A stretch of DNA of 64,000 nucleotides from IMG/VR virus record IMGVR_UViG_3300010049_000010, positions 749 through 64,748 of that record; one strand, 5' to 3'. Below, one piece after another: positions 6,846 through 54,148 of this stretch. The position numbers and the translations under genes are program-made. Position 1 is the first letter of the stretch. Each line of letters begins with the position of its first letter. Source of the stretch: a virus. Lineage: Duplodnaviria > Heunggongvirae > Uroviricota > Caudoviricetes. Under the pieces are notes generated by a model that saw nothing but the letters and a program-made list of their open reading frames with translations, did not search any database and was not told the origin of the DNA.

Positions 6846-6846
6846 T

Positions 6847-7245: not shown

Positions 7246-7277
7246 AATCTCTTATTTTAACACCATATCTAATTAAT

Positions 7278-7994: not shown

Positions 7995-8006
7995 GACTAA
8001 CTATAT

Positions 8007-9230
8007 ATGAAAACTGCAATTATAAGCTTTTCAGGTGGAAACTCTTATATAAAAGACAGACAAATTGGACAAATTCTCAAAGAAGACGATGTAGTATATT
8101 TACATGAATGTAAAGATTATGATGAGTTAGATTTAGTTGCGCCTATATTGCGAGAGTTTAATATTCAAAAAATAGTTGTTCTTCATGAAGAATATAATAT
8201 TGATAGATTTGAACAAGCAGCAAGAATTGAATATGGTAGATTATTTGAAAAAATAGAAGTTATACCAGATTTTAGTAAATTAAGAGAAAATGAAGGAGCA
8301 GCAGCTTCTACAAATACGGAAGAAAAACCAAAAAAAGTTATTCAACATGTCGTTATTGTGCCATTCAATGCTCCGGTGAAAGGAACATTTGAAGCTTCTC
8401 CTCAATTTGAAAATATCATTTCAAGTAATGGTTTAGATTATAGAACTAACACACTTTTAGCAAGTCTTGTATTAAAACAAGGGGATTCTTCTTTTGAAGG
8501 ATTTTGGAATCGTAATCCATTATATATCGCAGGATTTTTAGGTGGGAATCATGGTGAAGCTCCTAATTCAATGATTTCAGGTGGAGCTGAATTAGAAAAT
8601 ATTTTACAGCAAAAAGAAGCTGTTAATTTACAAAATGTTACTTTACATATTCCTGGAAGATTAAAAGATAAATTAAACTTAAAATATATTACTAAAACAG
8701 TCCCTTTACAAAATATGGACACAGATGCTGGAATTTGTAATGAAGCGTTGGCACTTGGAAAACAAATTATAGATGATGTGATGCCGCTCATAAATGAAAA
8801 AGATTTAAAGAAAATAGAAGAAAAAATAAAAATAGATGATAATAAAGTATCAGAATGGAAAGGCACTGATAAAATGAAAATGGTTACTGCTCTCCTAGAA
8901 GACGTTCAAACATTTTATGCTATAAAGCCTGGTGAACACGTCCCTGCAGAAAAAAATAATGGAAAAGGAGATTGGAGAAAAGCTTTTTTACAAAATATCG
9001 GTGCAGCAGATGACGCAAAATCTATTGCAAATTCTTTAGAAAATATGGGTGTTCCTGTTTCTTTCTTCGCGGCGGTTGGTAAAGCTGTTGGAGATGCAGC
9101 TAAAGACTTAAAAAATAAAAATAAAGAAGAAGAAATAGATGGTGAAGCTTTATATATTTGTCATCCAAGTTTTGATGACTTTGTTAGTAAATTTGATGTA
9201 GATAAAGTTCAAAAGAAGGAAAAAGTATAA
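8007..9230 (+). CDS. Hypothetical protein, possibly head-internal
   Basis: 407-aa ORF preceded by ACTAACTA-TAT-ATG. Several LxE sites (LHE, LRE, LHE, LRE) in the N-terminal 100 aa. Confidence 0.65.
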   Translation: MKTAIISFSGGNSYIKDRQIGQILKEDDVVYLHECKDYDELDLVAPILREFNIQKIVVLHEEYNIDRFEQAARIEYGRLFEKIEVIPDFSKLRENEGAAASTNTEEKPKKVIQHVVIVPFNAPVKGTFEASPQFENIISSNGLDYRTNTLLASLVLKQGDSSFEGFWNRNPLYIAGFLGGNHGEAPNSMISGGAELENILQQKEAVNLQNVTLHIPGRLKDKLNLKYITKTVPLQNMDTDAGICNEALALGKQIIDDVMPLINEKDLKKIEEKIKIDDNKVSEWKGTDKMKMVTALLEDVQTFYAIKPGEHVPAEKNNGKGDWRKAFLQNIGAADDAKSIANSLENMGVPVSFFAAVGKAVGDAAKDLKNKNKEEEIDGEALYICHPSFDDFVSKFDVDKVQKKEKV

Positions 9231-14273: not shown

Positions 14274-14302
14274 ATCATTAGATAAAATCACATCTAAATA
14301 AT

Positions 14303-14584
14303 ATGGAAAAATTAACGGAAAAAGAATGGAAATTCTGTAAAAAACTTAGATTAGATATAATGAAAATGTCGTCACTAACTGAACAATATAGACAAGATAT
14401 AATAAATTATATAATAAAGAAATGCAATAAAAAATATAAATGTGAAATTCAATTTAAAATGGATGAAAAAGATTACAAGATATATGAGTTTAAACTTAAT
14501 GAAAAGATAAATTATCTCGTATTTGATGTATTTGGAAAACAAACTGCAAATATAGTTCCAGCCGGCTGTTTAAAGATTGACTAA
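14303..14584 (+). CDS. Hypothetical basic protein
   Basis: 93-aa ORF preceded by TCTAAATA-AT-ATG. Confidence 0.6.
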   Translation: MEKLTEKEWKFCKKLRLDIMKMSSLTEQYRQDIINYIIKKCNKKYKCEIQFKMDEKDYKIYEFKLNEKINYLVFDVFGKQTANIVPAGCLKID

Positions 14585-14589
14585 ATAAT

Positions 14590-15864
14590 ATGCAAAATGC
14601 AGCAGTACAAATCACATTAAATATGGTCACTGAAATACCTGTTGATAGGTATGATGGATTTTTTATAAAATCATCTATTGAAGAAGGACTTCCTTATGGG
14701 TGGGTTAAAATTCTTGATCCAGAAGGAGTAACATTAGCTCAATTTGAAAATCTGCAAATTGGTGCCGACATTAATCTTAAATTAACGGACACACAAAATG
14801 ACTTAAATATATTTGATTTTCCTCAATTTAAAGTTTTATATATAGAAGATGATTGTGAACTCAATTATTCTATGTTTGCAGGCAGTATTACTATTTGGTT
14901 TGGACACCCCTGGTTTCTTTATAAAGATATTAAAAATCACGCATATAAACCTATGGACGCTTCTGAACTTATTAAGAAAATTTTAACTGATAGAAGTCGT
15001 GGAATGAGGTTTACTGTTAAAGATGAAAATTTTGATGTTTGTGATGAAACAGAAATTGGTTCTTTTAAAATATGTGAATCAGATTGGGATTTTATTCATA
15101 ATAAAATATTACCATATACTTCTATAAATCAATTACCTGTTCATTTCTTTTGTAATCATGATAATCAATTCTTTTTAAGATCATTTGAAAATATGTTTAA
15201 ACAAAATCCCAAAGCTCTTTTAATGCCTGCTGAAGAATTAATTGCTGATGAAGATAATGCCAAAAATATGAAAAGTATTATTGATAATAATAATTTATTT
15301 TCTACATTTCAAATTAATGCAGCGTGGATTAAAATTGGAAATGAAAAAATTATTAAAGAATTATACCCTTCTTTTTATTTTGAAAATCTAGTAAATAATT
15401 CATTCGTTAATGGAAATAAAAAGCCTGCAAATAAATTAATGGAAAGAAATGGGGCTTTATTTGGTAATATACTTCCTTTAGATAAAAAGTTTATGGATTT
15501 TAATGAAGGAACTTCAGTTAAAGTAATTCATAATAGACCTTTAATAAGTTCAATGATATTATTATTTCAAACATCTAAAATTATTGATAATATGTTTGAA
15601 ATAACAGTATCAACAAATTTTACTGGTGAAGCTTTATCTATAGGAGACACCGTACATATTTATGTACCTATATTTCAAATCGAAAATGAAAAAAAGAAAA
15701 GTTGGATTAATGGTAAATGGATGATTAAACAATTAGATTTCATGTCTAGTGATAATGATAGATGTATGATTATTACTCAAATGACTTTAATGAGACCATC
15801 ATTTGTGGGTGATACTCAAGACACAACATTATCTATGCATCGTAATTTATATGTGTCACCATAG
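14590..15864 (+). CDS. Baseplate hub protein (gp27/GPD/VgrG-N-like)
   Basis: ESDWDFIHNKIL matches the ESDxxF+xRL hub motif; C-terminal GDTV...GKWMIKQL; located between the sheath and a spike-like gene. Confidence 0.6.
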   Translation: MQNAAVQITLNMVTEIPVDRYDGFFIKSSIEEGLPYGWVKILDPEGVTLAQFENLQIGADINLKLTDTQNDLNIFDFPQFKVLYIEDDCELNYSMFAGSITIWFGHPWFLYKDIKNHAYKPMDASELIKKILTDRSRGMRFTVKDENFDVCDETEIGSFKICESDWDFIHNKILPYTSINQLPVHFFCNHDNQFFLRSFENMFKQNPKALLMPAEELIADEDNAKNMKSIIDNNNLFSTFQINAAWIKIGNEKIIKELYPSFYFENLVNNSFVNGNKKPANKLMERNGALFGNILPLDKKFMDFNEGTSVKVIHNRPLISSMILLFQTSKIIDNMFEITVSTNFTGEALSIGDTVHIYVPIFQIENEKKKSWINGKWMIKQLDFMSSDNDRCMIITQMTLMRPSFVGDTQDTTLSMHRNLYVSP

Positions 15865-16658: not shown

Positions 16659-19600
16659 GAATTATATAAATCGCTATTTAACTCTTTATTTAAAGCAGGT
16701 ATATTATCTAAACCAATTCCTGGGGTTGGTGCTTCTTGTTTATTTGTAATTGGGTAGATAGTGTGAGCCATTGGACCTAATAGTGAAACCATTGAATCAG
16801 TTGGAGGTTCAAACTCTGGTGATTCACGTTCTTCGATTCTTTTAATTTTTAATTTCTTTTTATATCCTTCTGCTCTAGGCCAAATTGATTGTGGTATTTC
16901 TACTGTCCAAAAATCTGCTCCTTGTTCTACTAAACATACAAGTTCTTCTGGAGCTAATTGTGCTTTACTATATTCTAAAAGATTTGAAGTATTCACATTA
17001 CCAAAAACATCCCATCTAATTGGCGTTTGTCCTATGTTATCTCCCCATTCAATATTTAATTTTAATGTGTCAAAATCTTTAATTGGACGCGCTCTCTTAT
17101 CTGTATTTAATCTATTCCAAGTGATATTTTTTTCATTCTCAGTATATTCTTGAGAAAATAATTGATATAATCCATCCTCTGGTTTATGAGCATATTTAGC
17201 TTTAAATTTTTGTCGACCTTTTTTACCTTTAACTTTTTTCATTATTTTTACATAGTTATTACCATTAGGATTTTCAGTCTTATATTTTGTATAAACATCT
17301 TCATTTACCCATTTTATTTTTATATAAAGTTTATTTATTCTATCATCTTCAAGACCTGCATTAGTTAAAACAGCATGTCTTTTAGCTTCAGTAGAATTTT
17401 GTAATTCAAAAAATGCTACTCTATAAATTGGATTTTTATTAAATAATTTTAATATATCAGGAGCTCTTCCATCTCCTACAGATTCATTACAAACCATATC
17501 CATAATAGATTCGAGACATCTCATTATCCACATAGTGCCGTCTTCTTTATTAAATCGCTTTGCTACAAAGAAAAATCTATAATTATATAATATGTTAAGA
17601 TATGCAAATAAAAATTCATCAATTATACTAACTTTTGTTGTTTCTTTAGTTAAGTTTATCAAATTAAATATTTCTTTAACATCATTATAACTCCATTCAT
17701 CTACATCTTTATAGCAATAACTAATAAGACCTAAAGTTTCAACATCTTGTCCATTTACTTTTTTAACTGAATCTTCTAATATGCTATTTAATATGCTTAT
17801 TTTAGATTTAATTGCTTCTAATATTTCATTTTTTGTGCGGTCTAAATCATCTTGTAAACCAAATAAATCTACAGCACATTCGGTCCAATAATTATATAAG
17901 ACATGCTCATAATCAACTGCGATAAATTCGCCAGTATCTTCCATTCCATTAGCTTTAATAACAGCTTTATCAACGCATTCAAATAATGCATAATGCAAAG
18001 TATTAAAATCTATTCTCTTTACTAAATCTCTTAAAAACTCAAAAGATGATATTTGGCCAGCAATAATAGATACTAAGTTTCTAATTGGATAATCTAAACT
18101 TATAAATGTTGCTTGAAATTGTTGAGGTGAATAAAACTTAGCTCTTAAATAAAGATTCATTATAGAATTTTTTAATTCAGGACTCATATCATGTCTCGTA
18201 TATTGAGCATTTGTTAAATTACTGATTACATCTAAATCTCTATTTAAAGATGATGGAATAATACTTTTAGTTTGAAATGGAAGATTCCTAATTGGGATAT
18301 CTTCACAAGTTTCATTTCCCATTAATAATTGTAAATAATATTTATAATCTGTTGTTTTAGCATATTCACCATCATATGTAACATCACCCCAACTATCTTG
18401 AGGCATACCAATTGGATGAGATTTATCTTCTACTCGTGGATAAACTCCCTGTAATGTAGATAATAAACCAACCCCTCTAATTAATCTATTTCCTAAACCA
18501 GACCAAGTTACACCGATATTTGCTTCTTGATTACTTCTAAGAGGTGCAGTTATAGTCGCTGCAAATTGTGCGTTAGCATTTTGTGGAGAATTAGGTACTA
18601 CCCCGTCTCCCTGAGGACCCCATCCACCACTTCCTAATCCAGTTAACTTTGTAAAAATGTCAGCAGCGCTACTCGCTACTTTAGCTAAGAAAGATTGTTC
18701 ATGCGTTATTATTTCTCCTGCATATTCTGTTTCATCCCAAAAAGAAGGCTCTTTAAATTTTTGAATAATGTGGTCACAATATAAAGAAGATTTTCTCGTT
18801 TCAGTCATATCTTGAATATGAAGTGGAACATGTAAACCTGTTTTAGTTTTATTGGTAAGAATTTCTTCATCTAAACCATCTTCAAAAAAATCAACATTAG
18901 ATAAGTCTACATTTATAAATGGAATATCAAAATATTCAATTGATTGTAAAGTTCTAACAGGACCTAATAATAATCGTTCTTTATATTCCCATCTTTCTAT
19001 AACATCTTGATAATTTAATACTTCACATTCAGCTCTGAAAATACTATGAGGTCCGCCGCCGCTTGAGTTTCCTTCACAAAAAATCATTGATACTCTTTTT
19101 TTATTCGTATTTTTATCATGATCAAGATTTATATCATAATCAAGAATATATTTCATAAATTCATGTTCTTTTTCAGGATCTTCAAAATGTAATACGAAAT
19201 GATACATTCCAATTTTATCTCTAAATCTTTGAGCTATTCCATATCCCTCTTCTTTCATTAATGTTGAATTTGCCCAATTATGAAATGCTTCAGTTTCATC
19301 TGCACTATACATCGTATGTAAAGTAATTCTCCAAGCTGCATCGGGCATATCATGGAAAATGTGATTATTGTAAGGGTCAACTGCTCTATACATATAAGTT
19401 CCCCATCTAACAGGCATTGGAACTCTAGTAACATAAACCATATTTCCATTTTCATCAGGTTCATATTCTGATGTATGCGTTACATTAAGATATGAGGTGT
19501 ATTCATACCACCAATCTGAATCAGTCCAAGGACTTTCTGTTCTGTTAATTACGCGATCAACCATTTTTACTTCACCAGAATAAGTTATTGGAAGTCTTTG

Positions 19601-23818: not shown

Positions 23819-25273
23819 TTAATCATTCACCATAAATGTTAATCCAGCAAATTGAGGACTATCAATCTCACCAGTGGCTGCTGATTTTGTAAGCATCGCT
23901 GCTCCTTCTTTGATTCCTTCCCATGCATCCATTACAGACCTAAGAGAATCAGTAAATATTGATTTAGCTTGAGAATACATTTCTAATGCAGCCCCTGCTT
24001 CAGGTGTATTTATAGCTCCTTTTAATATATCAATTCCCATCTGTTTCATTTGTCCGGGAATATCAGCAATATCATCTAAGAAATCATTTTTAATATTAGC
24101 CCAAGCTTCTTTTTTTGCGTTTGCTTCTTCCATTAATGCTTTAAGTGGACCCAATAAATCTAAATCAAGTTTATCTTTTAACATATTTACTGCTGATGGA
24201 TTAAATGCGCTCATAATGGAACTGAATGCTGATAATGCTTGTCTAATTTGAGCAATAATACTCATAGTTTGATCACATATACAATCCATATTTAAAAGAT
24301 TCCAAATATATTGAATAAGCATTGTAAGGAGCATTACAACAATTGCTACTACTATTTGAATAATTTTTTGAATTATAACTCCTACACTCGGAGGATTAAT
24401 CCACACGGATATTGCTAATTGAATTATTTCTATAATTGGAATTATAATTGATAAAACTAAATCTAAAATCATTTTTAATATTTTAATTATTCTAACAAGA
24501 ATAAGAATAATCTTTAACCATTTTATTTCTCTGTCAGCACAACTTTCAACATCATCGTCATCATCTCCTTCACCTCCAGTAGCTGATTCATCTTCCTCAC
24601 AAACACATGGATCCTCACCACATCTATCACAAGGTATAGCACCACAAGTGCAATCAGGCACTAATTTATCACAAACAGAACATCGAGGACAAGTGCATTC
24701 TTCAATTGATCTTTCACATTCAGGACAAAATTCACAAATACATGGGGCTTCACCACAAATTTCACAATACGTTTCATCATCGACATCATCAATATCTTCA
24801 AAATCTTCAGCGTCATCAAATTTAAATCTAATAAGAATTTCCTCACAATTTAGTTGTGGTGGTTCATCTAATAAATTTAATAATCGAGAAGCTGGAAAAG
24901 TTCCAATTTTTAATTCAAGTCCGGGCCCTAGTGGAAGTGGTTCTGTATTCATCGCTAATGTTGGAAATAAAACAGTGTTTCCAAATCCACCAGTTTGGGC
25001 AATTAATTTTTGTTTTGGAAATGGAATTCCGATTGGAAGAGATTCTCCACCTAAAGCCCTTCTTATTACTTCTTCTGGTTCTTCTTTTGGGGATATTTTT
25101 TTTCTAATTATATCATCAGTGACTTCTTGAAGTCTAGCAACTAATCTATCTAATTGGTCATAACTTATTTCACGTTTTGGATTAAGATTGGTGCTGTCTT
25201 CTGAGCCATAACTAAAGTCTTTATGATCATAACTATCATAAACTCGCTTAATCGTTAGATTAGTTTCTTCCAT
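23819..25273 (-). CDS. Membrane-associated protein with a 16-Cys repeat module
   Basis: Four CxxC-x(4-6)-CxC units, acidic flanks, then about 90 aa of Ile/Leu-rich helices; preceded by ACTAACTA-TT-ATG. Confidence 0.65.
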   Translation of the reverse strand: MEETNLTIKRVYDSYDHKDFSYGSEDSTNLNPKREISYDQLDRLVARLQEVTDDIIRKKISPKEEPEEVIRRALGGESLPIGIPFPKQKLIAQTGGFGNTVLFPTLAMNTEPLPLGPGLELKIGTFPASRLLNLLDEPPQLNCEEILIRFKFDDAEDFEDIDDVDDETYCEICGEAPCICEFCPECERSIEECTCPRCSVCDKLVPDCTCGAIPCDRCGEDPCVCEEDESATGGEGDDDDDVESCADREIKWLKIILILVRIIKILKMILDLVLSIIIPIIEIIQLAISVWINPPSVGVIIQKIIQIVVAIVVMLLTMLIQYIWNLLNMDCICDQTMSIIAQIRQALSAFSSIMSAFNPSAVNMLKDKLDLDLLGPLKALMEEANAKKEAWANIKNDFLDDIADIPGQMKQMGIDILKGAINTPEAGAALEMYSQAKSIFTDSLRSVMDAWEGIKEGAAMLTKSAATGEIDSPQFAGLTFMVND

Positions 25274-25294
25274 AATAGTTAGTTTTAAACAGAA

Positions 25295-27323: not shown

Positions 27324-27356
27324 TCATTTTCCTTCTAAAATTAGTTAGTCGATCTT

Positions 27357-29465: not shown

Positions 29466-30122
29466 ATGATAGTTATAGACGAAGTAGAAAAAGAAGTTCA
29501 GAAATTTATGCCGGATTATGAGATCTGCAGATATGGAGATATTCTTACTTCTAATTTTGAAATTCAGTACGATTTTACTTTTAAGGATCCAGTTTCTTGC
29601 TTTTATTTGAATATTAGAAGCAATAGAAGAAAGGATTTCTGTTATATTAAAGTAGATAAGAACGGAGGCCTATTAGAATTATATCCTTGGGTAGACAGTA
29701 ATCATACGATAAAAGATTCAATTCCAACTCATATGAATTATATGTTTCAAATAAGTATGCAAGCAGCAAAAAAATCATATTGTTCTTATAACGTTAGAAA
29801 TAAAACAGTAGAATCTATATATTATCCAGAAGAAGATGAATCAGAATGGAATGGGATAAAGTGCAATTACATAAAAAGATATGACAAATCAAGTCATAAT
29901 GAAACGAGAACTTATGTTAAAATAGATTCTCCTAATTTTGAACAATTTTTTAATCTTTTAATTGAAGGCGGAGAATCAGATAAAGCAGAATTATTAAGAA
30001 AATTAAATCCAAATACGATTATTTTATATATGAATGCTTTGGATAATCCATATAAATACTTATTAAGCTGGTGTGCTTTTAATCCTTCTTATTATGATGT
30101 TAAGAAGCAATATATTGCCTAA
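29466..30122 (+). CDS. Hypothetical protein
   Basis: 218-aa ORF; TTTAACTA-AA-ATG context. Confidence 0.6.
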   Translation: MIVIDEVEKEVQKFMPDYEICRYGDILTSNFEIQYDFTFKDPVSCFYLNIRSNRRKDFCYIKVDKNGGLLELYPWVDSNHTIKDSIPTHMNYMFQISMQAAKKSYCSYNVRNKTVESIYYPEEDESEWNGIKCNYIKRYDKSSHNETRTYVKIDSPNFEQFFNLLIEGGESDKAELLRKLNPNTIILYMNALDNPYKYLLSWCAFNPSYYDVKKQYIA

Positions 30123-30358
30123 TTAGTGGTGAAATGATATTTATTATTTTGATTATATGATGTATTATAACCCATATCTACATCAGCTTTAACCCAGGCC
30201 CATTCTCCAGATCTAATAGAAGTTTTTAATTGATATCCTTCATCATCAAAAATATCTTTTTCATCTAAAAATTCCCAGAGCTCTTTTCCAGTTTTAGTTG
30301 ATTTTTTTCCACCTATAACTACACTATATTTTTCATTTAGATTGAATGCTTTTTTCAT
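30119..30358 (-). CDS. Hypothetical protein
   Basis: 79-aa ORF preceded by ACTAATTA-TT-ATG. Confidence 0.65.
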   Translation of the reverse strand: MKKAFNLNEKYSVVIGGKKSTKTGKELWEFLDEKDIFDDEGYQLKTSIRSGEWAWVKADVDMGYNTSYNQNNKYHFTTN

Positions 30359-30386
30359 AATAATTAGTCTCTATTAACTAAATATT
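30359..30386. promoter_or_regulatory. Back-to-back class A motifs (ACTAANTA) in a 28-nt divergent gap
   Basis: ACTAATTA (minus, 30361-30368) and ACTAAATA (plus, 30377-30384), each 2 nt from its ATG. Confidence 0.75.
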
Positions 30387-33062
30387 ATGGAAGATAAATT
30401 TGAAGGCCAACAAATCTCAGCATTTGTTAAAAATACGGATAAAATTTGGGAAGGAATCCTTATTGTAAGAGATGATGGCACCCAAATAGTCCTCAATGAA
30501 ACTACAAAAAATTGGAAGAAACTCTCTGATTTAGAACATATTAGACTTATAGAAGAAGAAAACTTAGCTGATAAAATTAAAACTGCAAGTGATTCATGGG
30601 CAGGTTTATTAAGTACAACATTCGGTGATGTTGATAAAATTGATCCTTCTAAAATTAAACCAAATAGCGTGCAAAAAGCAACAAAAGACTTAACAGATAA
30701 AGCAGAAGCTACGGGCTTAGATACTCCTAAAACTCCAGAAGAGAGGGAAAAATCTGTAATTGATCATTTATCAAATGCATATATTAAAGGCGAAGAAACT
30801 AAATCAGCTGGAGATCAACAAAAAAATGTTGAAGCTGAAGAAAATATTAATCAATTTAAAAAAGAAATAGGAATGAAAATAGGTGAGTCTTTAAAATTAT
30901 TACATCCATTACTTCGAGAATCAGAAGACACTCATTATGAAATGGATGATGAAGATTTAGAAGAAACTAATGAAGAAACTGGAAATATTCCAGCAGAAGA
31001 AATTAGACAATTTGCTGTAGAAATATTATCAGATGACCAAGTAGATTTAAGAGACGCAATTGCTGATAAGTTTGATTTAGATGATGAAGCTGCAGAGAAA
31101 TATGCGATACAAGCAATGGAAGAATATTTATCCTCAATAGATGATGAAATAGAAGAAGATGAAGATGAAATAGAAAAAGATTTTGAAGAAACTATTGATG
31201 AATATGATGGCGATACAGATGGTCTTTTAGATTATCTTGTAGACACTTACGAAATAGATCCAGAAGAAGCTGAATTTATTTATGAAGAAAAAAGAGGAAA
31301 TCTTACCGAGTGTATTTATGCTTTTGTTGATGTAGTGAAAAAAAGATTAACAGAAGATATTGTTCGATTTATAAAAGATAATGAAAATTTAAGTCCAGAA
31401 GATAAAGAAGAAATAAATAATAAAGCTGGAAAATATCCAGAGAGATCTAAAAAAATAAATTGGCAATCAAAAGAAATAAAAGGTTGGACTAAAGATCAAT
31501 TTTTAGATATATTAGATCAAAAAACAGCATCACAAGAAAAAAGAGAAATTAAACAAGAAATTAAAAGTGGTGATTTAGAAGCAGCTTTTAAAAATACTAC
31601 AATAAAAACTTGGTATAAAGACGATAATATAATTTTAGCATCACCAACTACACATGCAGATTGTGTTTATCTTAATTCGTACAATTGTTTTGGTACAGGC
31701 GCTAAGTGGTGCATTGGCACAGAAGATAATTCGGCCTATTGGAATGATTACGTTTTTGACGAAGGAAAAATATTTATATTTATATATATTAAAAATATAA
31801 ATAAAAAACTTATGACATGTTCTGAATGGAATGGTCGAAAATTTAATATAGACTTTTTTGATGAAAAAGATGACGAATTTAATGCGTCCAGCTTTTCAGA
31901 TGTTTTTAATCAAATAAATGATCCAGAAAGCGGAGTACAAATCGACTCTTCAGAAGAAAAAGAAGAATATAATTATTATGATGATTTAGATTATGATTCA
32001 TGGGGATTAACTAAAGAAGAAATTGAAATAAAAGAACAAAAATCTTTCCCATTTCAAAAAATAAAACCGCTTCCCTCAAATTTATTAGATTCTATTCTTA
32101 AATCTGCTTATAAATTATTTAAAGAATTACCTAATGAAGTTTTAATAAAAGCAGAAAATGATGTAAAAGATGCTGTAAATAATGCTTTTAATAACAAAGA
32201 CAGTGTTACTATAGATGATTTTGAAACAAAAGTTAATGATATAAAATGCGGTGATGGTCTTGATTATGAAGATTGGGATAAAATATTTATTAAATATAAA
32301 GATCAAATAATTAATTATTATCATTATAGATTTATCAATTATCCTTCTGATTACGAAAAAATGTCATCAGGTCTTCTTTGGAATGATGTATTACACGAAA
32401 TATTAAATATTAATGAAAAAAATCTAAGAGCATTTTATAAAAATATTTTAATTGAAATTAAGAAAAAATTAAATATGAACTTTTATACAAATAATAAAAT
32501 GCGTATTGCAGCAGTACAACTTTTTATAAATCTTTTTTCATTACATAAATATGGTATTGATGATGCATCAAGAGCACATGAAAGATTACAATCTGATTAT
32601 GAAGAAAAAGTTAGATTAGCCATAAAAAAGCGCGGCTCTCGAAGTCCAAAAATTAGAGCTGAAGTTAAAGCTTCTATTCCATTACCTATTGATATTAAAG
32701 CCGCAGCATTAAAATTTTTACGAGCTCCAATTAAAGAATCTCGAATAGAAGAATATTTAGATAAAGTAGTTTTACGAGAAGGAGATTTGTTTATACATAA
32801 AGCGCTCAAAAATTCTCCATTACACCAAGCAGCTTCCGCGACATTATCAGGGCCTGGCCAATTAGGCTCAGCTATATTTGATAGACAATACGGAAAACAG
32901 AAGCCGGTTCAAACCGGTCCAAAATTTACTAAAGGAAGATTAGTTAGAAATGATAAATTTGGCGAAGGCATTATTGAAGATTTTTTAGGCAATGGAAAAT
33001 ATTCAGTTCATTTTTATGGGCCCAAGAAAACTAAAACAATGAAGGAAGGGGATCTTAAATAA
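30387..33062 (+). CDS. Multidomain putative prohead-core/internal head protein
   Basis: Acidic N-terminal third; many (L/I)xE junctions (LNET, LRES, LTEC, LTED, IKES, LREG); central SPTT...GTGAKWCIGT...YW module; C-terminal KOW-like segment. Confidence 0.5.
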   Translation: MEDKFEGQQISAFVKNTDKIWEGILIVRDDGTQIVLNETTKNWKKLSDLEHIRLIEEENLADKIKTASDSWAGLLSTTFGDVDKIDPSKIKPNSVQKATKDLTDKAEATGLDTPKTPEEREKSVIDHLSNAYIKGEETKSAGDQQKNVEAEENINQFKKEIGMKIGESLKLLHPLLRESEDTHYEMDDEDLEETNEETGNIPAEEIRQFAVEILSDDQVDLRDAIADKFDLDDEAAEKYAIQAMEEYLSSIDDEIEEDEDEIEKDFEETIDEYDGDTDGLLDYLVDTYEIDPEEAEFIYEEKRGNLTECIYAFVDVVKKRLTEDIVRFIKDNENLSPEDKEEINNKAGKYPERSKKINWQSKEIKGWTKDQFLDILDQKTASQEKREIKQEIKSGDLEAAFKNTTIKTWYKDDNIILASPTTHADCVYLNSYNCFGTGAKWCIGTEDNSAYWNDYVFDEGKIFIFIYIKNINKKLMTCSEWNGRKFNIDFFDEKDDEFNASSFSDVFNQINDPESGVQIDSSEEKEEYNYYDDLDYDSWGLTKEEIEIKEQKSFPFQKIKPLPSNLLDSILKSAYKLFKELPNEVLIKAENDVKDAVNNAFNNKDSVTIDDFETKVNDIKCGDGLDYEDWDKIFIKYKDQIINYYHYRFINYPSDYEKMSSGLLWNDVLHEILNINEKNLRAFYKNILIEIKKKLNMNFYTNNKMRIAAVQLFINLFSLHKYGIDDASRAHERLQSDYEEKVRLAIKKRGSRSPKIRAEVKASIPLPIDIKAAALKFLRAPIKESRIEEYLDKVVLREGDLFIHKALKNSPLHQAASATLSGPGQLGSAIFDRQYGKQKPVQTGPKFTKGRLVRNDKFGEGIIEDFLGNGKYSVHFYGPKKTKTMKEGDLK

Positions 33063-36402: not shown

Positions 36403-38322
36403 TTATGGTCTGGCTCTATTGCCTCTTTTTTGGTTGTGATCTTTTAAGTTATCAATTGCGATAAGCGCAAGATATCTTCTGTTAAGAACTGCCCAGTCAC
36501 CATAAGTTGCGATACCAGCTTCTTTGTAGAAGTTCTTTCTTTGGATAATACCAGTGCTGAAGAAAGGAATTAAAGTACCGAATGCGATACTTACGTCATT
36601 TTCAACTGCATCGTTTTTCCAGATACAAAGTAATTCGTTCGTTGGAATGATGTTACTTGGTACTTTAAACAATGGAATACCATCGAGTTCGCCAAATTGG
36701 TGTGAACCAGTTTGATTTTGTTTACCTTTGTTGCTATAACCTGCATTTAAGTGCATATAAGAACAAGCTGATGGACCAGCTACGAGTCGGCTTACGCCTC
36801 CTCTGTTGATTTCATCATAGATTATGTCGCCAACTGCATCAATCGCGTTAACGAATGTTTGTGCGTTGTCTCTATAACCGTCTTTTGTTCCTACTGGATT
36901 CATTTCAGGCTCAACACCAACGTTTGTTGTGTTATAAGCTGCATCAAATACATAGTAGTAGTTAGGGTTATGTTTTGCGTTAGTTTTTGCTACCGCGTAA
37001 GCTAATCTGATTGCTCTGTAGTCTAATTGTGCTCTGATTTCTTGTGAAGCATAACTTACAAGATATTCTTCCGCGCTGATATTAAAGCTTGTGTCAAGTG
37101 TAATTTCAGTTAATTGTGACCAAGAAACACCGATTGAAGTTGGAGAAGGTCTGAACATATATTCATCCATTCTTAATTCTACTTCACCGAGGTAATTACC
37201 TTCGAAATCACTTTCTGAGTTGTATCTACCAAATGCTCTTAATTCAGTTGTTCCTGCTGTAAACCATGCTGGTTTCTTTGCTTCGTCAACGTCAATTTTT
37301 ACAATAAATGTACCAGTAGAAGCTAATTCAGTTGCTAATGCTCCGCCGTCTGTGCCAACTGGATCGTCCCAGTGTGCGCTGTTTCCAGGACCAACTTTTG
37401 GAGGTGCTACTAAGAACTTATCTCTTACTGAAGGTGACTTAACAATAGTTACTGTGAAACCTTCTGCTGCAAAGAATTGGCCTGAGCCTTTGTCTTGAAG
37501 CGCGATTACTTGTTGTTCTACTCTTTCAGCTTTATCTCCAGGATTATATCCATAAAGATAAGTATATCCGTCCATATAAAGCGCGCCATCTGCACCCCAT
37601 TTGCCAGATTCAAAAGCTGCTTCTTGTGTGCATCCTGCAAATCCTGCTGGAACTTTCTTAAATAAGATACCTGCAGTTGTAGATACGCCGAGAGGGCCTA
37701 ATCTTGCTGTCGCACCTTCATTTACGATCATACCGTTCGCCAATTCTTGGTTAATTCGGTCTCTTGTATCTTCATAAAGTGCTTTTCTGAAATCGTCTCC
37801 GTTAAATTCTCCGCCGAGTCCGTATCCCCAAGGATCGTATTCTTCTTTGCCGTAAGCTGAGAGTTGTCCAGGTGTGTCATTAAAACCATCATAATCAGCT
37901 GATTTATCGTTTAATGGGTGTCCATTAGCTGTTTTGCTGAAGAATGGTCTGATGTATTTAATAGAATCTTTTGTTGTTTCCAACGCAAACTCTGTAAATA
38001 CCTTGTTACGAATAATGTTAGGCATAGCAAGTCGTACGAGTCTTAACATATTTTCTGGTGTGAAATCATTCAACGCTGTTGCGAGTTGTGATTCTCGAAG
38101 ACCCTGCATGAAAGCAGTTTGTCTGTCTAAGTTGATAGCGACATTTCGAGCATCTGCGATTGGCATAGTTTTGAGGCCTGCTCCAATTTCTGGAATTCTT
38201 GACCAAGCTTCTACTAATCTGTCAGCTCTAAATTTCTTATCTTCTTTATATAATTGCATTGTAGCATTTTCTCTAAGTCTAGCGTCTGCTTCTTTAGCTG
38301 CTACTCTTTCTTTTAAAGACAT
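36403..38322 (-). CDS. Major capsid protein (T4 gp23-like, HK97 fold)
   Basis: MLRLVRLAMPNIIRNKV, EITLDTSFNISAEEYLVSYASQEIRAQLDYRAI and FGELDGIPLF...AFGTLIPF fit the gp23-family layout. LRE sites lie in the N-terminal arm. Strong SD and terminator. Confidence 0.85.
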   Translation of the reverse strand: MSLKERVAAKEADARLRENATMQLYKEDKKFRADRLVEAWSRIPEIGAGLKTMPIADARNVAINLDRQTAFMQGLRESQLATALNDFTPENMLRLVRLAMPNIIRNKVFTEFALETTKDSIKYIRPFFSKTANGHPLNDKSADYDGFNDTPGQLSAYGKEEYDPWGYGLGGEFNGDDFRKALYEDTRDRINQELANGMIVNEGATARLGPLGVSTTAGILFKKVPAGFAGCTQEAAFESGKWGADGALYMDGYTYLYGYNPGDKAERVEQQVIALQDKGSGQFFAAEGFTVTIVKSPSVRDKFLVAPPKVGPGNSAHWDDPVGTDGGALATELASTGTFIVKIDVDEAKKPAWFTAGTTELRAFGRYNSESDFEGNYLGEVELRMDEYMFRPSPTSIGVSWSQLTEITLDTSFNISAEEYLVSYASQEIRAQLDYRAIRLAYAVAKTNAKHNPNYYYVFDAAYNTTNVGVEPEMNPVGTKDGYRDNAQTFVNAIDAVGDIIYDEINRGGVSRLVAGPSACSYMHLNAGYSNKGKQNQTGSHQFGELDGIPLFKVPSNIIPTNELLCIWKNDAVENDVSIAFGTLIPFFSTGIIQRKNFYKEAGIATYGDWAVLNRRYLALIAIDNLKDHNQKRGNRARP

Positions 38323-38450
38323 TTTTTTCTCCTATTAATATATCTTTCGAAGAAATAAGTTTAACTTTTGTTCGATCATATTAAAATCTAAGTTTGGCAT
38401 ATTTAACCAAAAGTCGCATATTAATAACTTCTTTCCTTCTGTTTCTTATT

Positions 38451-38458
38451 TATTTAGT
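38451..38458 (-). promoter_or_regulatory. Class A motif ACTAAATA upstream of the major capsid gene
   Basis: Same octamer as at other gene starts, 128 nt upstream of the MCP ATG. Confidence 0.6.
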
Positions 38459-38475: not shown

Positions 38476-39075
38476 CTATATAGTTCCCATAATCGTTAAA
38501 GTTCCCTCATCAACAGCAATTTCACATTTAGTGATATTTGCTTTACAAGGCTTAATTTTTTCTAACACATAATTTGCGTCATGCTGAATTGCTGTTACAT
38601 CTATATCCATTCCAATCCAAGATTCAACTGAATACTGGAAAGTAAATTCAATACTAATCTTTCCCTGATTATCAAATGCTGGTTGACATTGTCCAACTGC
38701 TCTTTTATACATTGAATTACTTCCAAGTAACTCTATCATAGCCACTTCAATAAGGGGGACTAATGTTTGAGTTAGTTGAGCAGTTTTATCGTTAATTACT
38801 TTTGGCAAGCCCATTACTGTTTGATAGTTACCTTGCGCGAACTTAATTTGCGCATTACCTATTGGATCTAACGCGTCATATTGGCCTTGTGTAATACCCT
38901 GAGAGTCTTGGGGAACTGCTCCGTCTTGAACGGGCATAAATTTTTCATCTGTAAGAACAGGTTGATTATCTTGGTCTAAAGGTTTATCAACAAAGGAATG
39001 ATTACCTTGTTCAACACCAGTATCTTCTCCACCTTCTTCTTTTTCTTCTTGTTCTTCGTTATTCTGATCTGCCAT
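38476..39075 (-). CDS. Hypothetical protein, acidic N-terminus
   Basis: 199-aa ORF preceded by ACTAAATA-ATT-ATG. Confidence 0.65.
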   Translation of the reverse strand: MADQNNEEQEEKEEGGEDTGVEQGNHSFVDKPLDQDNQPVLTDEKFMPVQDGAVPQDSQGITQGQYDALDPIGNAQIKFAQGNYQTVMGLPKVINDKTAQLTQTLVPLIEVAMIELLGSNSMYKRAVGQCQPAFDNQGKISIEFTFQYSVESWIGMDIDVTAIQHDANYVLEKIKPCKANITKCEIAVDEGTLTIMGTI

Positions 39076-40408
39076 AATTATTTAGTATCTGATTTGAGAA
39101 CGTCTTTCCTACCAAATTAGACATTAAAGTTTTGCCTAATACTGGTTCTCCTGTAGTTTTTATAATAAGTTTATAAGTATTTTTTACAAAGTTTTTAGAT
39201 GTTACTGAAAGCGCGCACTCATATGTAGATCCTGGATATAGATCTTTTATTTCAAATTGATTAGTGTCTAAAGAACTTATCTTATCCCTTACAATTCCCG
39301 GAACATAAATAACGATACTTTCAAAATTATTTTCATATTGTTGTAATACTTTCCAACCAATAGTGATAGTGTTATCAGTAGTAAGTTCATCTATTTGACG
39401 ATATTCTTCTAAGATACAATCAGGTTCTTCTTCAAAATAACCTTCAACTACATCTGAGATAGTTTCTTCAATAACGTCTTTAGTAAATCTTCCATCATTT
39501 TTCAGATGTTCAGATATTATAATCTCTTCTCCATTTATCTGTATTGGAGCTCTAACTTGAGGTTTCTGTGTAATATTTTGTGGAAGATGAATTTCAGCCC
39601 CTTCTCCATCTGGTGGATTAAAATTATATCCAGAAAATATTGGATTAGGACCAAACTTATTATCTCCCCAAATAAGAGAAGTTTTGTGCGTAAATACTAC
39701 TTCATTATTTTTATTATAACCATAAAGTCCACTAAATCTTACAGGTAATTCTAATCCATCATCTATTTGTTCTATAAGTGTTTGATATGACCTAATAGTG
39801 AATTCACACTTAATTGGAAATATTTTAGATTTTTCTAGCCAATCTTTTTCATTATATTCTACATTACTATCAAAAGAATCTAAAGTGATAAAAACTGGAA
39901 TATCAATTGGATGCCCGCATAAATCATGTTCAACTATAAAATATAATGGGAATTTTGGCTGAGATTCCCAATAGAGTAGTTGACTAGCAATATTTACATC
40001 ATCCCTTCTAGCAAAGAAAACTGTCGCGTTATATTTTATTTTTACAGCTGCAGCTTTAAGAATTAATCCAGTATCTGGGTTCATTTGGCCTAAAACTATT
40101 TGTCCCGCTTGTTGAGTCGCACCTCTATCATCAGCTTCATAAGTTCCAGTTTGAGAATATGCGGCAAATGGTAAACCTAAATTTATGTAATTATAATCTT
40201 GATTTTTAATATCTCCTTGACCAACAGTTTCTACTCGTCTTCTAAAAGCGATGTCTTCTTTTGAATAAACTACTCTGTTTAAATCACCATTAAATAATAA
40301 TTGAGAAAGATAAAATTCCATTCCAAATTTACACATTAAATTTGTATCAATGAAATTATTATTTCTAAGAGATTGATAATATGAGTTTACTTTTACTTCT
40401 TGTGCCAT
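39059..40408 (-). CDS. Tail terminator/completion protein (gp15-like) with C-terminal FN3 domain
   Basis: DIPVFITLDSFDSNVEY...IKCEFTIRSY resembles gp15; NTITIGWK...IKDLYPGSTYECALSV is FN3-like. Confidence 0.55.
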   Translation of the reverse strand: MAQEVKVNSYYQSLRNNNFIDTNLMCKFGMEFYLSQLLFNGDLNRVVYSKEDIAFRRRVETVGQGDIKNQDYNYINLGLPFAAYSQTGTYEADDRGATQQAGQIVLGQMNPDTGLILKAAAVKIKYNATVFFARRDDVNIASQLLYWESQPKFPLYFIVEHDLCGHPIDIPVFITLDSFDSNVEYNEKDWLEKSKIFPIKCEFTIRSYQTLIEQIDDGLELPVRFSGLYGYNKNNEVVFTHKTSLIWGDNKFGPNPIFSGYNFNPPDGEGAEIHLPQNITQKPQVRAPIQINGEEIIISEHLKNDGRFTKDVIEETISDVVEGYFEEEPDCILEEYRQIDELTTDNTITIGWKVLQQYENNFESIVIYVPGIVRDKISSLDTNQFEIKDLYPGSTYECALSVTSKNFVKNTYKLIIKTTGEPVLGKTLMSNLVGKTFSNQILNNYGRSE

Positions 40409-43400: not shown

Positions 43401-46400
43401 GAATTTGTTTAACATCAATTTCAGCCATTAATATTTGGAAATCATCTTGATTTTCTTCTGGTTTATAATCACTTTTTAATAATGGAGCTCTTAATAATGT
43501 TCTATAATCTATATTTTCTGTAATTAGGTCCTTCATCGTAAAATTAGTATCTTGATGATACCAAGGATCTAACATTCTCATATAGTCACCTTTTATATCA
43601 CAAAGATAAATTGGTTGATTTTCATAATTTAAGGATTCTCTGTAATTATGAACTTCTTCATTATTTGCATCTACAAAAGTATCATACTCATATGTATATC
43701 TATTAGTATCTTCAGAAATTGCAGGGATTCCGCGTTTATCTTCTAATCTTAATTCAGGCGTTAAATTTTCTCTTGGAGAATATAATCTATTAGCAAACTT
43801 AGGATCATCTACTTTAATAAATGATCTTACTAAAAAATCTCCATTTGAATCTAAATATTCATTTTTGAATTCTAAAAATCTTGTTGGATTTTCAATTAAA
43901 TTAGAAGATTCAATAGATACTAAAACGTGAACAAATTCAGAACTATTAGCTGGTGTAACTGAGGAAACATATTCAATTATATCATCTCCAACTTTAGTAA
44001 TTCTCGTTCCTCGTTCAATATTAAAATTAAATGGAAGTTCTAAACAGAATTTTTTACTATAGCTTATTTCTAAATTATCTGAATTAAGATATCCATTGCA
44101 TAATACACCATTGTAATTTTCTAATCTAAAATTTTTCCAAGTAGCTTTTAAATCACCAAGTTTTACATTAGACATATTTTTAAGTTGTCCGTCATTAATT
44201 ATGCTATCACCAACTAACATAAGAGTCATAAAACCTAAATCACTAGATCCATTATTAGTACCGCTCTTAAACATTATTCTTATTTCATTGCCAGTTCTAT
44301 ATATAGAATCAGCAAAGATATTTAATGACCCGATTGCATTTAATGAAGGTATAGCTCCAGTTGTTGGTATGTTTACTTCATAAAAAGTTTTTCCTTCGTT
44401 ATCACTAAAGAAAACTACTGGATATTTATTTGAAACAATTCTTGTACCATCACTTGGTAAGAAATTAATTAAAGTTTCTCTTTCAATTCTTCCATCTTCA
44501 GTATCATTTAATCTATTACATTCACTTATTGGAGCTGAAATATAACCTGAGTATATTTGGAAATTATCATTTATGTATTTTCCCATTATAGTAAAATATT
44601 TTGCTACATTTCCAGAAGGATAAACGCCAAAAGGTCTATATTGATTTCCAAAACCAACTGTTTGAGTTTTAATATTTGTAGAAGTTAATCCGTAAACATA
44701 ATTAGTTCCTAAGTTTGTAATATTCCAATTATTATAATTTTCAATATTATCTCTTGATGTCGCTTTTTCTAATGGAAATGTTATTATATCATCTTTATTA
44801 GTTTGAATAATTAATTGCGTATTTGTTAACGTTACATCTTTTATAGTATCATGATTAAAGAAATAATCAACACGTTCTCCTGAACATATAGCTGAGTAAT
44901 AATCCATTAAATATCTGATATAATTTTGTTTTACCATATATTTAGAAACAGTATATCCTAATTCATAAAAAGTTTCTTGAGGACTTGACCATTTTGTTAT
45001 TGCAGCAGTTCTAAAATTAGGAATTTTTCCATTTTCTGTATGATGGAATTCAATTCCATTTAAAGTTATTTCTCTAGGAATATTATCTTCTACAGGGAAC
45101 TCCAAAACATCATTTGCTGTTATCCAAGCCTTAATTGTTTGAGCATCTCCAGATCTATTTCCTAAATATTTCAAGTAAATATCTCTTTGTAATTTTACAA
45201 ACCTATATGCTTGGCTTAAATTTAATTCATCAAATAATTTATAAGTAACATTTATACTTGATGGTAGTCTTGCTCGTTTCCAGTGATAATTATCTGTTAA
45301 TCCATTAGGCAATAAAGCTCTTTCTCTTCCGTCAGTAGTTGGATTTTTTAAGTCCTTTGATATATAACAATTTGTTTTAGTATAAAAGAAAATATCTCTT
45401 CCACTTATAATTACTTGATTATTAAGTGAATTATATGCGGTCCATTTTTTAGCTCTATTCTCATTGTCATTTCCAGTTAATATTTGATACGGTCCTTCTG
45501 TATAAAATTGTGGGACATTTGTAATCGTATTTGTTGTTCCATATTCAGGTATATTATGCGTTAAAATTCTTTTTGGATCTTTAACAGAGAAATCATAAAT
45601 ATGATAACAATTAGGTGTGGCTTGGGCTATATTTATTTCAAATCTAGCACTTGTCACCCCAGGCGCGAGTACAATTGCCGCGATATTTATATTTTGAGAT
45701 ATTTCTGCTCGAGGTAATTTCCATAAAAATTGTCCAGCAATAAGACTATTATAAATATCAGTATGACTATCTTTTGAAAATCTACCAAAATTATGTCCAA
45801 CAACATAAGTTGTTACTTTCGTTTCTTCTAAATTTGTATTATTAGTAATAAAGTTTGTTGATAATATTGGATTTTCTGATACTATCCATCTTTGAAGACT
45901 ATGATTATATATCCAAACTTGATGAACTTGGTCTGTTCCATTAGTTGACAATCTGTTTAATATACCAAAAGAAATTGAAGTTTCTTGTGTTGTCGCAACT
46001 TTTTTGAATGAAAAATCAATTACTTTATAATTATCTAAACCTATTCCTGTTATATTAAAATCTCTTCTAACGGAAATATTATTAGTTCCATTTCCAGTCC
46101 CACTTATAATAAAGCTTTGTTTTTGCGGTCCTGCATCTCTGTCATGGGGTGTCTGAGATCCAGTTCCAGACCACGTAATAGCTTGAGCCGGCTCAACATA
46201 ACTTATCTCGCTAAAAGCGACGTCTCTTGTTATTACATTTTTATAATTTTTTATTAAGTTATCATGTCTTTCATCACCAACATAATTATCTCTAATTTGT
46301 ATAGATTCATAAGTATTTAAGTCTCCACCTTCGAATGGCGCAGCATATATTCTTTCAAGTTTATAATCACTTGCATCTATAGGATCTATTCTCACTGAGA

Positions 46401-49400
46401 ATATTACAGGAAAATCTTGCTGATTAGTAACAGCTTCTTTTTTATAAGCGCCTATTATCCATAAGTTCTTTTTTAAGTCCCAAGATAATGAGTTGGCTGA
46501 ATATATATTGTTTGTTCCGGTTTCCGTTAAAGTAAAACTTGCTCCAGGAAGACGATTTTCCCCCGTTAATTCTAATCTATCAGGTATTCTTAATAATGGC
46601 GTTTTATAATAGAATATTTTGTCTTGCTGGTCTATTACGAATAAAATTCCCCTTCTATAATCCATAAATTTAATATCACTTGGAGTAGTAGCTACTTCTC
46701 CTGAAAATTCATAAGTTTTATAATCATTGAATGTAGAAGATGAGATGCTAATTAAATCTTTAATATCATCATTTTTTCTAACATAAGTTAATGCGTCTCC
46801 TAATTTTGGATTATTATTAAAATAAATTTTTGATGGTTCAGAAATATCAATCTCACCTTCTAATACAAGTAAGTTTCTAAAATATATAAAAGTATTCATT
46901 CCATCTGTTAAAGACTTTGTTATTCTCATATCTCTTATATTAGGAGTATAAATTAATGATCCGTCTTGCCATCTTGATTCACCAAAATTTATTTCATTTT
47001 CAGGATAAAGAATACTTTCATTATTTATAATTTTAACTGGTTGTAATTTTTGTATTTCTGTTAAAAACTTCATTTTGTTAGAAGTATGTATAGGCTCTCT
47101 ATCATATTTATAATTAACGCTTAAATATTGTTTATTATTAGCGAAATCAATATAAATGCCTTTAAATAATCCTTCAATATTACAATAATTTGAAAATAAA
47201 ACAGATTCTAAGTTAACATTATATGGAGACCTAACATTTACTTGTTCTATTTGAAGAATTCTATCAAATAAACTTAAATCGTTAGAATTAAATCTAATTC
47301 CTTCAATACCGGAAATAACAGCTTGATCAGCTACTACCCCATCAACCATAGCTTCAATTTTTTGATATTGTCCGTAAATATATAAAAGATTTTTGAAATA
47401 TTTATTATTTTGCTGATCAATAGCAAATTTTTTTCTTTCATTATTTATCGTATTATATGAATATAAAGTATCATAATTTTTATCATAATAAATTTTATCT
47501 TCAGTAATGTCTAGGAAATGTCTTATTTCTTCTTTCGCAATATCATTTAAATTTTCCCATTCTTCTAAATCAACTTTTATTATATTTCCATCTTCATCTT
47601 CCACTTCTTTTTCCGGGTCGAATTTAATATCAGTTCTTTGGCCATCTGTTCCTAATTTATAATAGTAACTAATATCTTCATTATAATCTATTTCATCATT
47701 TTCATCATAAAAATAACCTTTCACTTTAAATTTTGGTATAACTGAAAATTTAATATCAGTAGTGCCTCTTAATATATTTTTATACCCCAAATCAATTTTA
47801 TTTTTATATTTATTTATAATCTCTATTGGAAATATATTCTTATCTTTAGTATATCCATATCTTCCTACAAAAGTAAGATATTCAAAATTTCTAATTGTAG
47901 CCATTCTATAACTATGATCAATTAAAAAGAACATCTTATTAGTATTTATAAAGATTAAATTAAACTTATTATTAATTAAAACAAGTCCCATATTTTGACC
48001 ATTTCCAATAAAACATTTATTAAAATGATCTTGACCATTATATTTGTCATAACCGCAAGTGTAATTAAACCAAAGTATATCGTGTTCATTAATATTATAA
48101 ATATTATTAAAATTAATTGGAAATGCGTCAATTTTTTCTTGAGAAGGATTATTATCTAAGTCACTAATTGTAATTTCAGTGCCATTTATTACGTTTAAAT
48201 AAATTTTCGTAAGTTCATTTTCTGAATATAATGCTAAATTTTGTTCACTTGATTTTATTATACCTAAATTCATTATTGTTTTTACAAGAAGCTTGTGTAA
48301 TAATGTTTTATCATTAAACATAACACCAGGTATAATAGAGTTTCCAATAGTAACTCTCGTTTCTTCATCTCCGGGAGGTGGAAGAACTATTTTATTAAGT
48401 TCAGATTGTAACCCATAAAGTCCATTAAAGATAAAATCTTTTATTTCCCATTTGTTATTAAAATTATTATATAATAATATTGTGCCGGCTTTATATGAAA
48501 AGTTTGCTATTTCTCTTCCATCGATAGTGTAATTTGTTCCTAATCTTTCATCAAGAGGAGTAGGACATTTTTGCATATCAATTACATTAGTAAGATTTGT
48601 ATTTTCCGTTATTACGTAATAATAGTTTGCATCTAAAAATTCTGGAGCTGGCGGATATCCTATAATATAATCATTTTCACATTTAACACTTTTAGGAATC
48701 CATATTCCTTTATAACTAAACACTGAAGTTTGTTCAGGTTTAATTATTTCTACATCACCAATAAATCTATTATTATTTGCTATATTCTTAAATAAATCTA
48801 ATTCAAAAAATCTTCTATTTAAGATATTTATATCTTCTTCATTCATTTTTGAAAGATCTTTAAATACTTGTTTTATTATAGAAAATTGAACAGTTGTAAA
48901 TACTCTATTTAAGTAACCATCAAAATCAATATTTTTTTGAACTTCGTATTCTCCAAGATAAACTCTCATTATTGGTTTATGAATACTATAAATTGGATCA
49001 TAAGCTCTTTCATCATTTACATCAAATTCTTTTACAAAATAAGTAGACCTCTCTATTTTAGATGGATCTAATCCTCGAGCTTTTAATTCTTCGTTGGTCA
49101 TTGAACTTATATCAGTATTATCATACACATCATAATTCCAATAAGCCTTTGGTTCCATACTTTCATACTGAGCTTCCAAGTCTTTTTTTCTGAAAATATC
49201 ATCACTCAATTTTCCAATTCCAATATCAACATAATATGGCATTGTTCTAGAATTCCAACCATAAGTTCTAAATGAAGAATCTATATTATTATCTCTAGTA
49301 GCTACTCCATTAGTATAAGTAAATGCATTTATATTTACTCCAATACTTACTTCATCTGAAGCCCTAGATATTTCTCCAACATAATTTTGGAAATAATCTA

Positions 49401-54117: not shown

Positions 54118-54148
54118 AATAATTAGTTAAGAATAGAAAGGACCGAAT

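Follow-up and report, generated by a model that had tools for sequence, protein, structure and literature searches.

A 12-base box abutting start codons is a probable compact promoter, with candidate leaderless mRNAs, in an uncultivated termite-gut phage

In an uncultivated termite-gut phage of ~330 kb, a conserved 12-base box, TAACTAAWTAWT, directly abuts the ATG in about one gene in six, and comparisons of sequence within and between genomes indicate that this box is very likely a promoter. Five tests favour that view, namely the depletion of antisense copies inside genes, the enrichment of the box at the heads of divergent units, a junction shared by copies that precede an ATG and copies that precede a Shine-Dalgarno (SD) sequence, conservation upstream of the capsid gene, and spacings that shift together in a sister clade. 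In the explanation proposed here, the box (T-A-A-C-T-A-A-W-T-A-W-T) would act as a compact promoter without a -35 element, and transcription would start at the purine that follows its near-invariant T(-1). For ~48 genes this purine would be the A of the ATG, so that leaderless mRNAs would arise, including that of a 4569-aa gene, and these would be translated without an SD site; for ~11 further genes it would be the first base of an (A)AGGAG leader, and for the capsid gene it would head a 130-nt leader. The box would be read by the host RNA polymerase redirected by a phage factor, in the manner of T4 gp55. We put the probability of this compact-promoter explanation as a whole at about two in three; within it, we infer the late timing, the leaderless translation, the identity of the polymerase and its factor, and the exact start point.

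The stretch analyzed here (the window) comprises 64,000 nt, bases 749-64748 of a 261-kb IMG/VR phage record (~31% GC; completeness estimate 79%). Termite-gut metagenomes contain DNA of this phage, megablast against cultured phages returned no match, and tblastn with the capsid protein gave two weak matches only. Genes were called throughout with a custom simple picker that takes the longest ORF from its first ATG, and with this picker the genome (G000) has a coding density of 95% under the standard code. It was compared with the relatives G001 (complete, 329 kb, with terminal repeats), G002 and G003 (large fragments), with G006, a complete 386-kb phage of a sister clade whose capsid protein is 60% identical, and with four distant relatives (L150-L153) fetched via the capsid protein (capsid identity 47-68%). 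A literature search with the box sequence returned unrelated primers only, and no paper on promoters of this clade was found. RNA came from one termite-gut metatranscriptome, which shares 10-12% of words with the phage and was compared over positions 44001-64000; its contigs measure 161-675 nt, about half of those listed carry many differences (other strains) and none ends at a box site. Because they are short and mostly from related strains, these contigs are uninformative on start sites.

An alignment of 134 box-fused sites from four genomes (G000-G003) gives the full box as T(-12) A A C T A A W T A W T(-1) ATG, which is longer than the octamer ACTAANTA at its core. T occupies -1 in 133 of the 134 sites, G is absent at -5 and -2 in all of them, and there is no information upstream of -12. 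This genome holds 81 octamers, with an ATG exactly 2 nt downstream of 36 and 3 nt downstream of 7, and among its ~296 genes there are ~48 fused and ~11 SD-led copies. Strong SD sites are found in ~128 genes of the phage, while the box-fused ATGs are without one. The whole 261-kb record contains 36 copies of the pattern ACTAANTANNATG, and G001, G002 and G003 contain 43, 33 and 22, respectively, against 0 for the reversed pattern in each case. A comparison with shuffled sequence, proposed as a check in the earlier note, shows enrichment in the window, where WCTAWNTANNATG occurs 12 times compared with 1.97 +/- 1.5 in 100 dinucleotide shuffles (top shuffle 7). A comparison of start-codon usage (ATG vs GTG/TTG) was uninformative, since ATG dominates everywhere.

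A separate regularity concerns box positions -5 and -2, which are interdependent (chi-square 54.6, p = 4e-11; 134 sites, G000-G003). The pair counts are TT 43, AA 38, AT 19, CA 15, CT 9, TC 7 and TA 2, and orthologues swap AATAAT and ATTATT as one unit.

The earlier note had listed 16 sites in the window at which the octamer lies 2-3 nt before an SD-less ATG, and the arrangement is present at all 16. On the plus strand, the box is fused to the ATG of an 18-codon mini-ORF (box and ATG, 3540-3552), to an ATG opening 132 codons (6837-6849), and to the ATGs of a 424-aa gene (14580-14592) and a 403-aa gene (58318-58330), the last with a terminator-like hairpin and T run directly before it. Variants on the same strand are fused to the ATGs of genes of 238 aa (TCTAATTA / TCTAATTAAT, 7268-7280), 93 aa (TCTAAATA / TCTAAATAAT, 14293-14305) and 160 aa (ACTATTTA / ACTATTTAAT, 54506-54518) and of the DNA methyltransferase gene of 339 aa (ACTTATTA / ACTTATTATT, 62180-62192). 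On the minus strand, boxes are fused to the ATGs of the 484-aa gene (25271-25283), the 4569-aa gene (54115-54127) and a 185-aa gene (57111-57123). A 3-nt spacer separates the variant ACTATTTA from the ATG of a 143-aa gene (6261-6274, +), ACTAACTA from that of a 407-aa gene (7996-8009, +) and ACTAAATA from that of a 199-aa gene (39073-39086, -). The back-to-back pair reported at 30359-30386 is likewise real: two outward-facing boxes (30356-30389 with their start codons) fill the 28-nt gap between a 79-aa gene, whose arm reads ACTAATTATT + ATG (30356-30368, -), and an 891-aa gene, whose arm reads (TA)ACTAAATATT + ATG (30377-30389, +). SD-led copies are also where they were reported. The octamer is followed after 2 nt by AGGAG of a 249-aa gene (1513-1520, +), after 4 nt by AAGGAG of a 350-aa gene (57205-57212, +) and after 7 nt by AAGGA of the NrdD gene (27342-27349, -), and another copy lies ~130 nt upstream of the capsid gene (38451-38458, -).

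Two of these sites bear on how the start codons are read. At 3540, octamer and ATG are present as described, but the ATG opens only the 18-codon mini-ORF (3550-3606) and not the 874-aa baseplate-region gene that lies ~80-100 nt downstream; the mini-ORF could be an upstream ORF, or its ATG could be kept merely as part of the promoter. At 6837, the ATG adjacent to the box (6847) is 12 codons downstream of the first in-frame ATG (6811) of a 144-aa ORF, and because the box is fused to the inner codon, 6847 rather than 6811 is probably the true start. The 12-base box could serve more generally to correct start-codon calls of this kind.

The earlier note had argued for a promoter rather than only a ribosome signal, and each of the computational tests able to tell a promoter in the DNA from a signal in the mRNA points to the promoter. 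Measured against synonymous-codon shuffles of this genome, the octamer occurs inside genes 3 times in antisense orientation vs 21 expected, and 17 times in sense orientation vs 19.6 expected; for antisense depletion it ranks first among 105 permutations of the same composition, the next lowest ratio being 0.60. Antisense copies also rank first in G001 (13 vs 32.6 expected) and in G006 (3 vs 18.5 expected). Such an antisense bias points to a DNA promoter, a directional element that is avoided mainly where antisense RNA would arise, whereas a signal acting at the level of mRNA predicts the opposite, namely avoidance on the sense strand. Sense copies inside genes are also depleted in G001 (ratio 0.61) and G006 (0.34), and therefore some sense-strand selection exists.

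The position of the box among genes leads in the same direction. In this genome, 17 of the 42 genes that head a divergent unit are box-fused, compared with 31 of the 252 other genes (odds ratio 4.8, p = 4e-5), and in G001 the figures are 20 of 54 and 33 of 327 (p = 2.5e-6); SD-only genes are depleted at such heads (p = 2e-5). Since each head gene needs its own promoter, this enrichment argues for a promoter. Four divergent gaps, 21-30 nt long, are made up of a pair of box copies facing outward, and in two gaps of 22 nt the studied box is paired with a box of a second class, GTTAATATA; one of these gaps holds the 54506 box (+) together with its second-class partner (-).

The SD-led copies share the junction of the fused ones. 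Among 37 such copies in four genomes, the SD begins 2, 3 or 4 nt past the octamer in 18, at the WT|A junction where the ATG otherwise sits, and in copies directly before an SD the distance from box to ATG is 11-18 nt. The box is also kept over evolutionary distance: 13-14 orthologous box/box pairs between G000 and G001 retain it, although their proteins are only 28-74% identical and the flanks are unalignable, and one gene has a box and SD leader in this genome and a box and ATG in G001.

The capsid locus extends the comparison to distant relatives. The 639-aa protein encoded at 36403-38322 (-) is a Gp23-type major capsid protein (Atlas search score 0.96); PF07068 is present in many of its 388 homologues. 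Its gene has an SD and a ~130-nt leader that opens with the octamer, both here and in G001, and ACTAANTA is found 130-230 nt upstream of the capsid ATG in this genome, in G001 and in 4 of 4 distant relatives. At one of the distant capsid loci, of 58% GC, the capsid-upstream octamer is the sole octamer in 22 kb; other octamer copies in the distant relatives precede genes with SD leaders of 22-40 nt.

The capsid leader itself measures 130-230 nt (window 38323-38458, -; G001; L150-L153), with blocks conserved between G000 and G001, and may act as a regulatory RNA or in the control of translation. In L153 (GCA_019973075.1, capsid 47% identical), a gene for ribosomal protein bS21 lies near the capsid gene, at 18289-18480 (-), which links the family to published bS21 phages; a bS21 gene was not found in G000-G003.

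Two other readings have to be weighed against a promoter. First, the box could lie inside the mRNA and act in translation, either by loading ribosomes without an SD or as an operator over the AUG for a translational regulator, comparable to the T4 RegA sites, with transcription starting further upstream. This would suit a box that is A/U-rich and abuts SD-less start codons, as well as the A that directly follows the ATG in 97 of the 134 sites and the somewhat depleted sense copies in G001 and G006. We nevertheless regard it as improbable, given that the strongest and most consistent depletion falls on antisense copies, which are never present in mRNA, that the box also stands directly before SD sequences at 11-18 nt from the ATG, and that a box 130-230 nt upstream of the capsid ATG cannot load ribosomes there. 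In the divergent gaps of 21-30 nt, moreover, a further promoter would not fit unless it lay within the neighbouring ORF. Second, a phage or host endoribonuclease could cut longer transcripts after the near-invariant U and thereby create leaderless or SD-first ends; MazF-type enzymes are known to make leaderless mRNAs. RNA processing would explain both the fixed junction common to ATG-fused and SD-led copies and the T at -1. However, genes would be expected to avoid a cleavage site in sense orientation, whereas in this genome sense copies are near expectation (17 vs 19.6) and antisense copies are almost absent, and divergent pairs would still need promoters although no other conserved element is present, which leaves processing a slim chance.

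If the box is a promoter, a likely start point can be proposed. The box-adjacent ATG is taken to be a real start codon because an in-frame stop lies within 10 codons upstream of it in 97 of the 134 sites and because, in 25 of 37 alignments of orthologues, the aligned part opens no later than residue 10 in either protein. With the ATG 2 nt, or the SD 2-4 nt, past the octamer, transcription would have to start within 3 nt, so that the octamer would span about -10 to -3. Transcription start sites follow a pyrimidine(-1)/purine(+1) rule, and the near-invariant T(-1)/A(+1) junction fits it, which points to that purine as the start. A point against this placement is that we know of no sigma-type -10 element as close to the start as -10 to -3.

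The sister clade allows a comparison at this junction. In G006, 28 octamer copies are fused to an ATG at a spacing of exactly 4 nt, with a pyrimidine at -1 in 28 of 28 and no constraint from -4 to -2, and SD leaders begin at least 6 nt past the octamer, bar one outlier at 0 nt that probably does not function. Between clades, the spacing to the ATG thus shifts together with the minimum distance to the SD, as would be expected if both marked the RNA 5' end. A start at the ATG followed by leaderless translation is, on this evidence, the probable outcome for the fused genes; that their translation would be leaderless follows from the proposed start point and from the missing SD.

The geometry had been claimed earlier to differ from that of T4, and the spacings agree with this, as with a box at -13 to -6 the first transcribed base would fall past the ATG or, in SD-led copies, within the SD. 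A late promoter of T4 geometry, with the start 5-6 nt past the octamer and the ATG serving as part of the promoter, would accommodate the match of the octamer to T4 TATAAATA at 6 of 8 positions and the Aeh1 motif CTAAATA that it contains, the Gp23-type capsid protein, and the 3540 copy whose ATG opens only 18 codons, but for this clade it is highly improbable given that orthologues align from residue 1-10 with in-frame stops just upstream of the ATG, that no downstream SD or alternative start is evident, and that the SD of 13 SD-led copies, which begins 2-3 nt past the octamer, would be cut off.

Promoters set against SD-less ATGs and late promoters of the T4 type are both already known, and the compact promoter proposed here shares features with each. 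The T4 late promoter, read by gp55, is TATAAATA at -13 to -6, and Aeromonas phage Aeh1 has a predicted consensus CTAAATA from -12 (PMC1524935, PMC2988020). Like these, the present box is an 8-bp A/T-rich element without a -35 element (octamer ACTAAWTA), the form ACTAAATA contains the Aeh1 consensus, and the box is found ahead of the gene for a Gp23-type capsid protein and of further probable virion genes, in a phage with T4-like head features. It differs in its position, which would be about -10 to -3 here and about -12 to -5 in G006, in conservation that runs to -1, in the many copies fused to an ATG without a leader, and in that no gp55 homologue is detectable here. Late promoters of phage AR9 read AACA-N6-T-A/G(+1) and are recognized by a non-virion multisubunit RNA polymerase (PMC5312081, PMC9209446). 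If the start is the A of the ATG, the present box reads A(-11) A(-10) C(-9) T(-8), N6, T(-1) A(+1), which would place its AAC, the T at -1 and the purine at +1 in the AR9 register, and neither has a -35 element; T here nonetheless replaces A at -8, no multisubunit polymerase genes were found (no DFDGD motif in complete relatives), and AR9 leaders measure 26-491 nt, with none leaderless. Finally, '-10 adjacent to ORF' promoters of Deinococcus-Thermus give leaderless mRNAs (PMC12340547), and most middle and late mRNAs of Thermus phage phiYS40 are leaderless (reviewed in PMC3594737). There too, in a large share of genes, a promoter element stands only a few bases ahead of an ATG that has no SD. 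That element, however, is a sigma70-type TANNNT hexamer 6-7 nt before the ATG, a register in which the sequence of the studied box is TAACTA and the T expected at -7 is an A, while the second class (GTTAATATA-N5-ATG) fits. A further difference is that an SD is found at nearly half of the genes of this phage, and the host therefore evidently reads SD sites.

What appears to be new is the 12-base box, its predicted position, nearer to the start than that of the T4 box by ~3 nt, a spacing that differs between clades, and the scale of its use. A wider and more tentative reading, which we consider possible but rather doubtful, is that a large family of uncultivated jumbo phages with Gp23-type capsids, including the bS21 phages, shares one promoter core, ACTAANTA, read by a phage factor or polymerase, with a start distance that shifts between clades and with leaderless genes. 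Under that family-wide reading, the distance from core to start would be +3 here, +5 in G006 and +6/7 in T4, and about one-fifth of the genes of the termite-gut clade would be leaderless, including the 4569-codon ORF, in an SD-using host. If the compact-promoter explanation is true, the box would at once chart the transcription units in a clade of 330-kb phages that cannot be cultured, late promoters of the T4 'TATA-box' type would be far wider in distribution and more plastic than cultured T4-like phages suggest, and there would be phages that rely on leaderless translation for many genes, giant ORFs among them, in a host that reads SD sites. The 2-nt and 4-nt spacings of the two clades would then amount to a natural experiment on start-site distance, which predicts a specificity factor that co-varies with them.

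A distinct sigma factor or RNA polymerase specificity had also been proposed in the earlier note, from the geometry unlike that of T4; the search for a gp55-like sigma factor or phage RNA polymerase found none. Pfam RNA_pol_Rpb2_6 (PF00562), Rpb1_2 (PF00623) and T7-type RNA_pol gave no matches in this genome or the complete relatives, although the T7-family negative is a weak one because its control matched in no control genome. Sigma70_r2 and r4 likewise had no match in this genome or the complete relatives, and no RNA polymerase- or sigma-like proteins were found in this genome, in complete G001, in G006 or in G007-G009. The PHROG late-sigma families phrog_234 (eight genomes) and phrog_12791 (four genomes) were without a match, and phmmer returned nothing below E = 0.2 with T4 gp55 and nothing with T7 RNA polymerase. 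As gp55 evolves fast, a distant analogue is possible. A six-frame regular-expression search for the D-F/Y-D-G-D catalytic loop in this genome, complete G001 and G006 produced only a false lead, a 'TADYDGD' match in G006 that belongs to a tail-fibre-like repeat protein. It is because no phage RNA polymerase is detectable that the host enzyme is the likeliest reader of the box.

About 15 small proteins end in ...(E/D)LFD(D/E)EEL (G000 95442-98703, -, and scattered), and these tails resemble the clamp-binding tails of T4 gp55, gp33 and gp43 (T4 gp55 ends ...SLDFLYEAND). The small proteins ending in ...ELFD(D/E)EEL were considered as possible clamp-binding gp55/gp33 analogues and set aside, with no informative PHROG match and no link of any of them to transcription. 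A weak match to the gp19 tail tube accompanies the T4-like head with its Gp23-type capsid.

The genes that carry the box have few recognizable relatives. The 19 largest box-fused genes are almost without family matches; one resembles a terminase weakly, and a glycosyltransferase and a homing endonuclease are recognizable. For the giant proteins of 4569, 2384 and 2416 aa, Pfam gave no match and comparison with solved structures gave nothing meaningful. The box also precedes NrdD, GIY-YIG endonuclease, glycosyltransferase and methyltransferase genes and is thus not purely structural in its distribution. By gene content, the box would fit a late, virion-gene class, an assignment that is not clean because NrdD and methyltransferase genes also carry it.

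A second class of box, (A)GTTAAT(A/T/C)TA, with 54 + 24 copies in four genomes, precedes SD-less ATGs by 5-6 nt and in the window is found at 54499 (-), 59541 (+), 36344 (-), 28869 (-) and 61113 (+). Its layout is that of an extended -10 sigma70 promoter, with the hexamer TAATAT ending 6-7 nt before the A of the ATG, and its antisense copies inside genes are depleted (5 vs 12.9). Genes of replication and metabolism carry it: among the ten largest with GTTAATNTA-N5/6-ATG are both halves of a family-A DNA polymerase, together with genes for a PIF1-type helicase, an SbcC-like ATPase, a DnaC-like ATPase, a SAM synthetase and a radical-SAM enzyme. For this SAM synthetase (G000 137457-138617, -), the nearest homologues from bacteria are those of Spirochaetales and Treponema MAGs (66-69% identical, vs at most 64% for others), and this sequence affinity provides a weak hint of a Treponema host.

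A third element, CTTATAWT, often directly follows GTTAAT and lies 3-8 nt before an ATG or a short SD leader; it is found at G000 173561-175240 (-), at 29680-30072 (-) and at ~10 other genes, and may represent an early promoter class of the host type. The first of these genes encodes a 559-aa protein with eukaryotic-type topoisomerase IB domains (PF01028, PF02919, PF14370), which is unusual for a phage, and it adjoins the gene of an 823-aa GHKL-ATPase protein.
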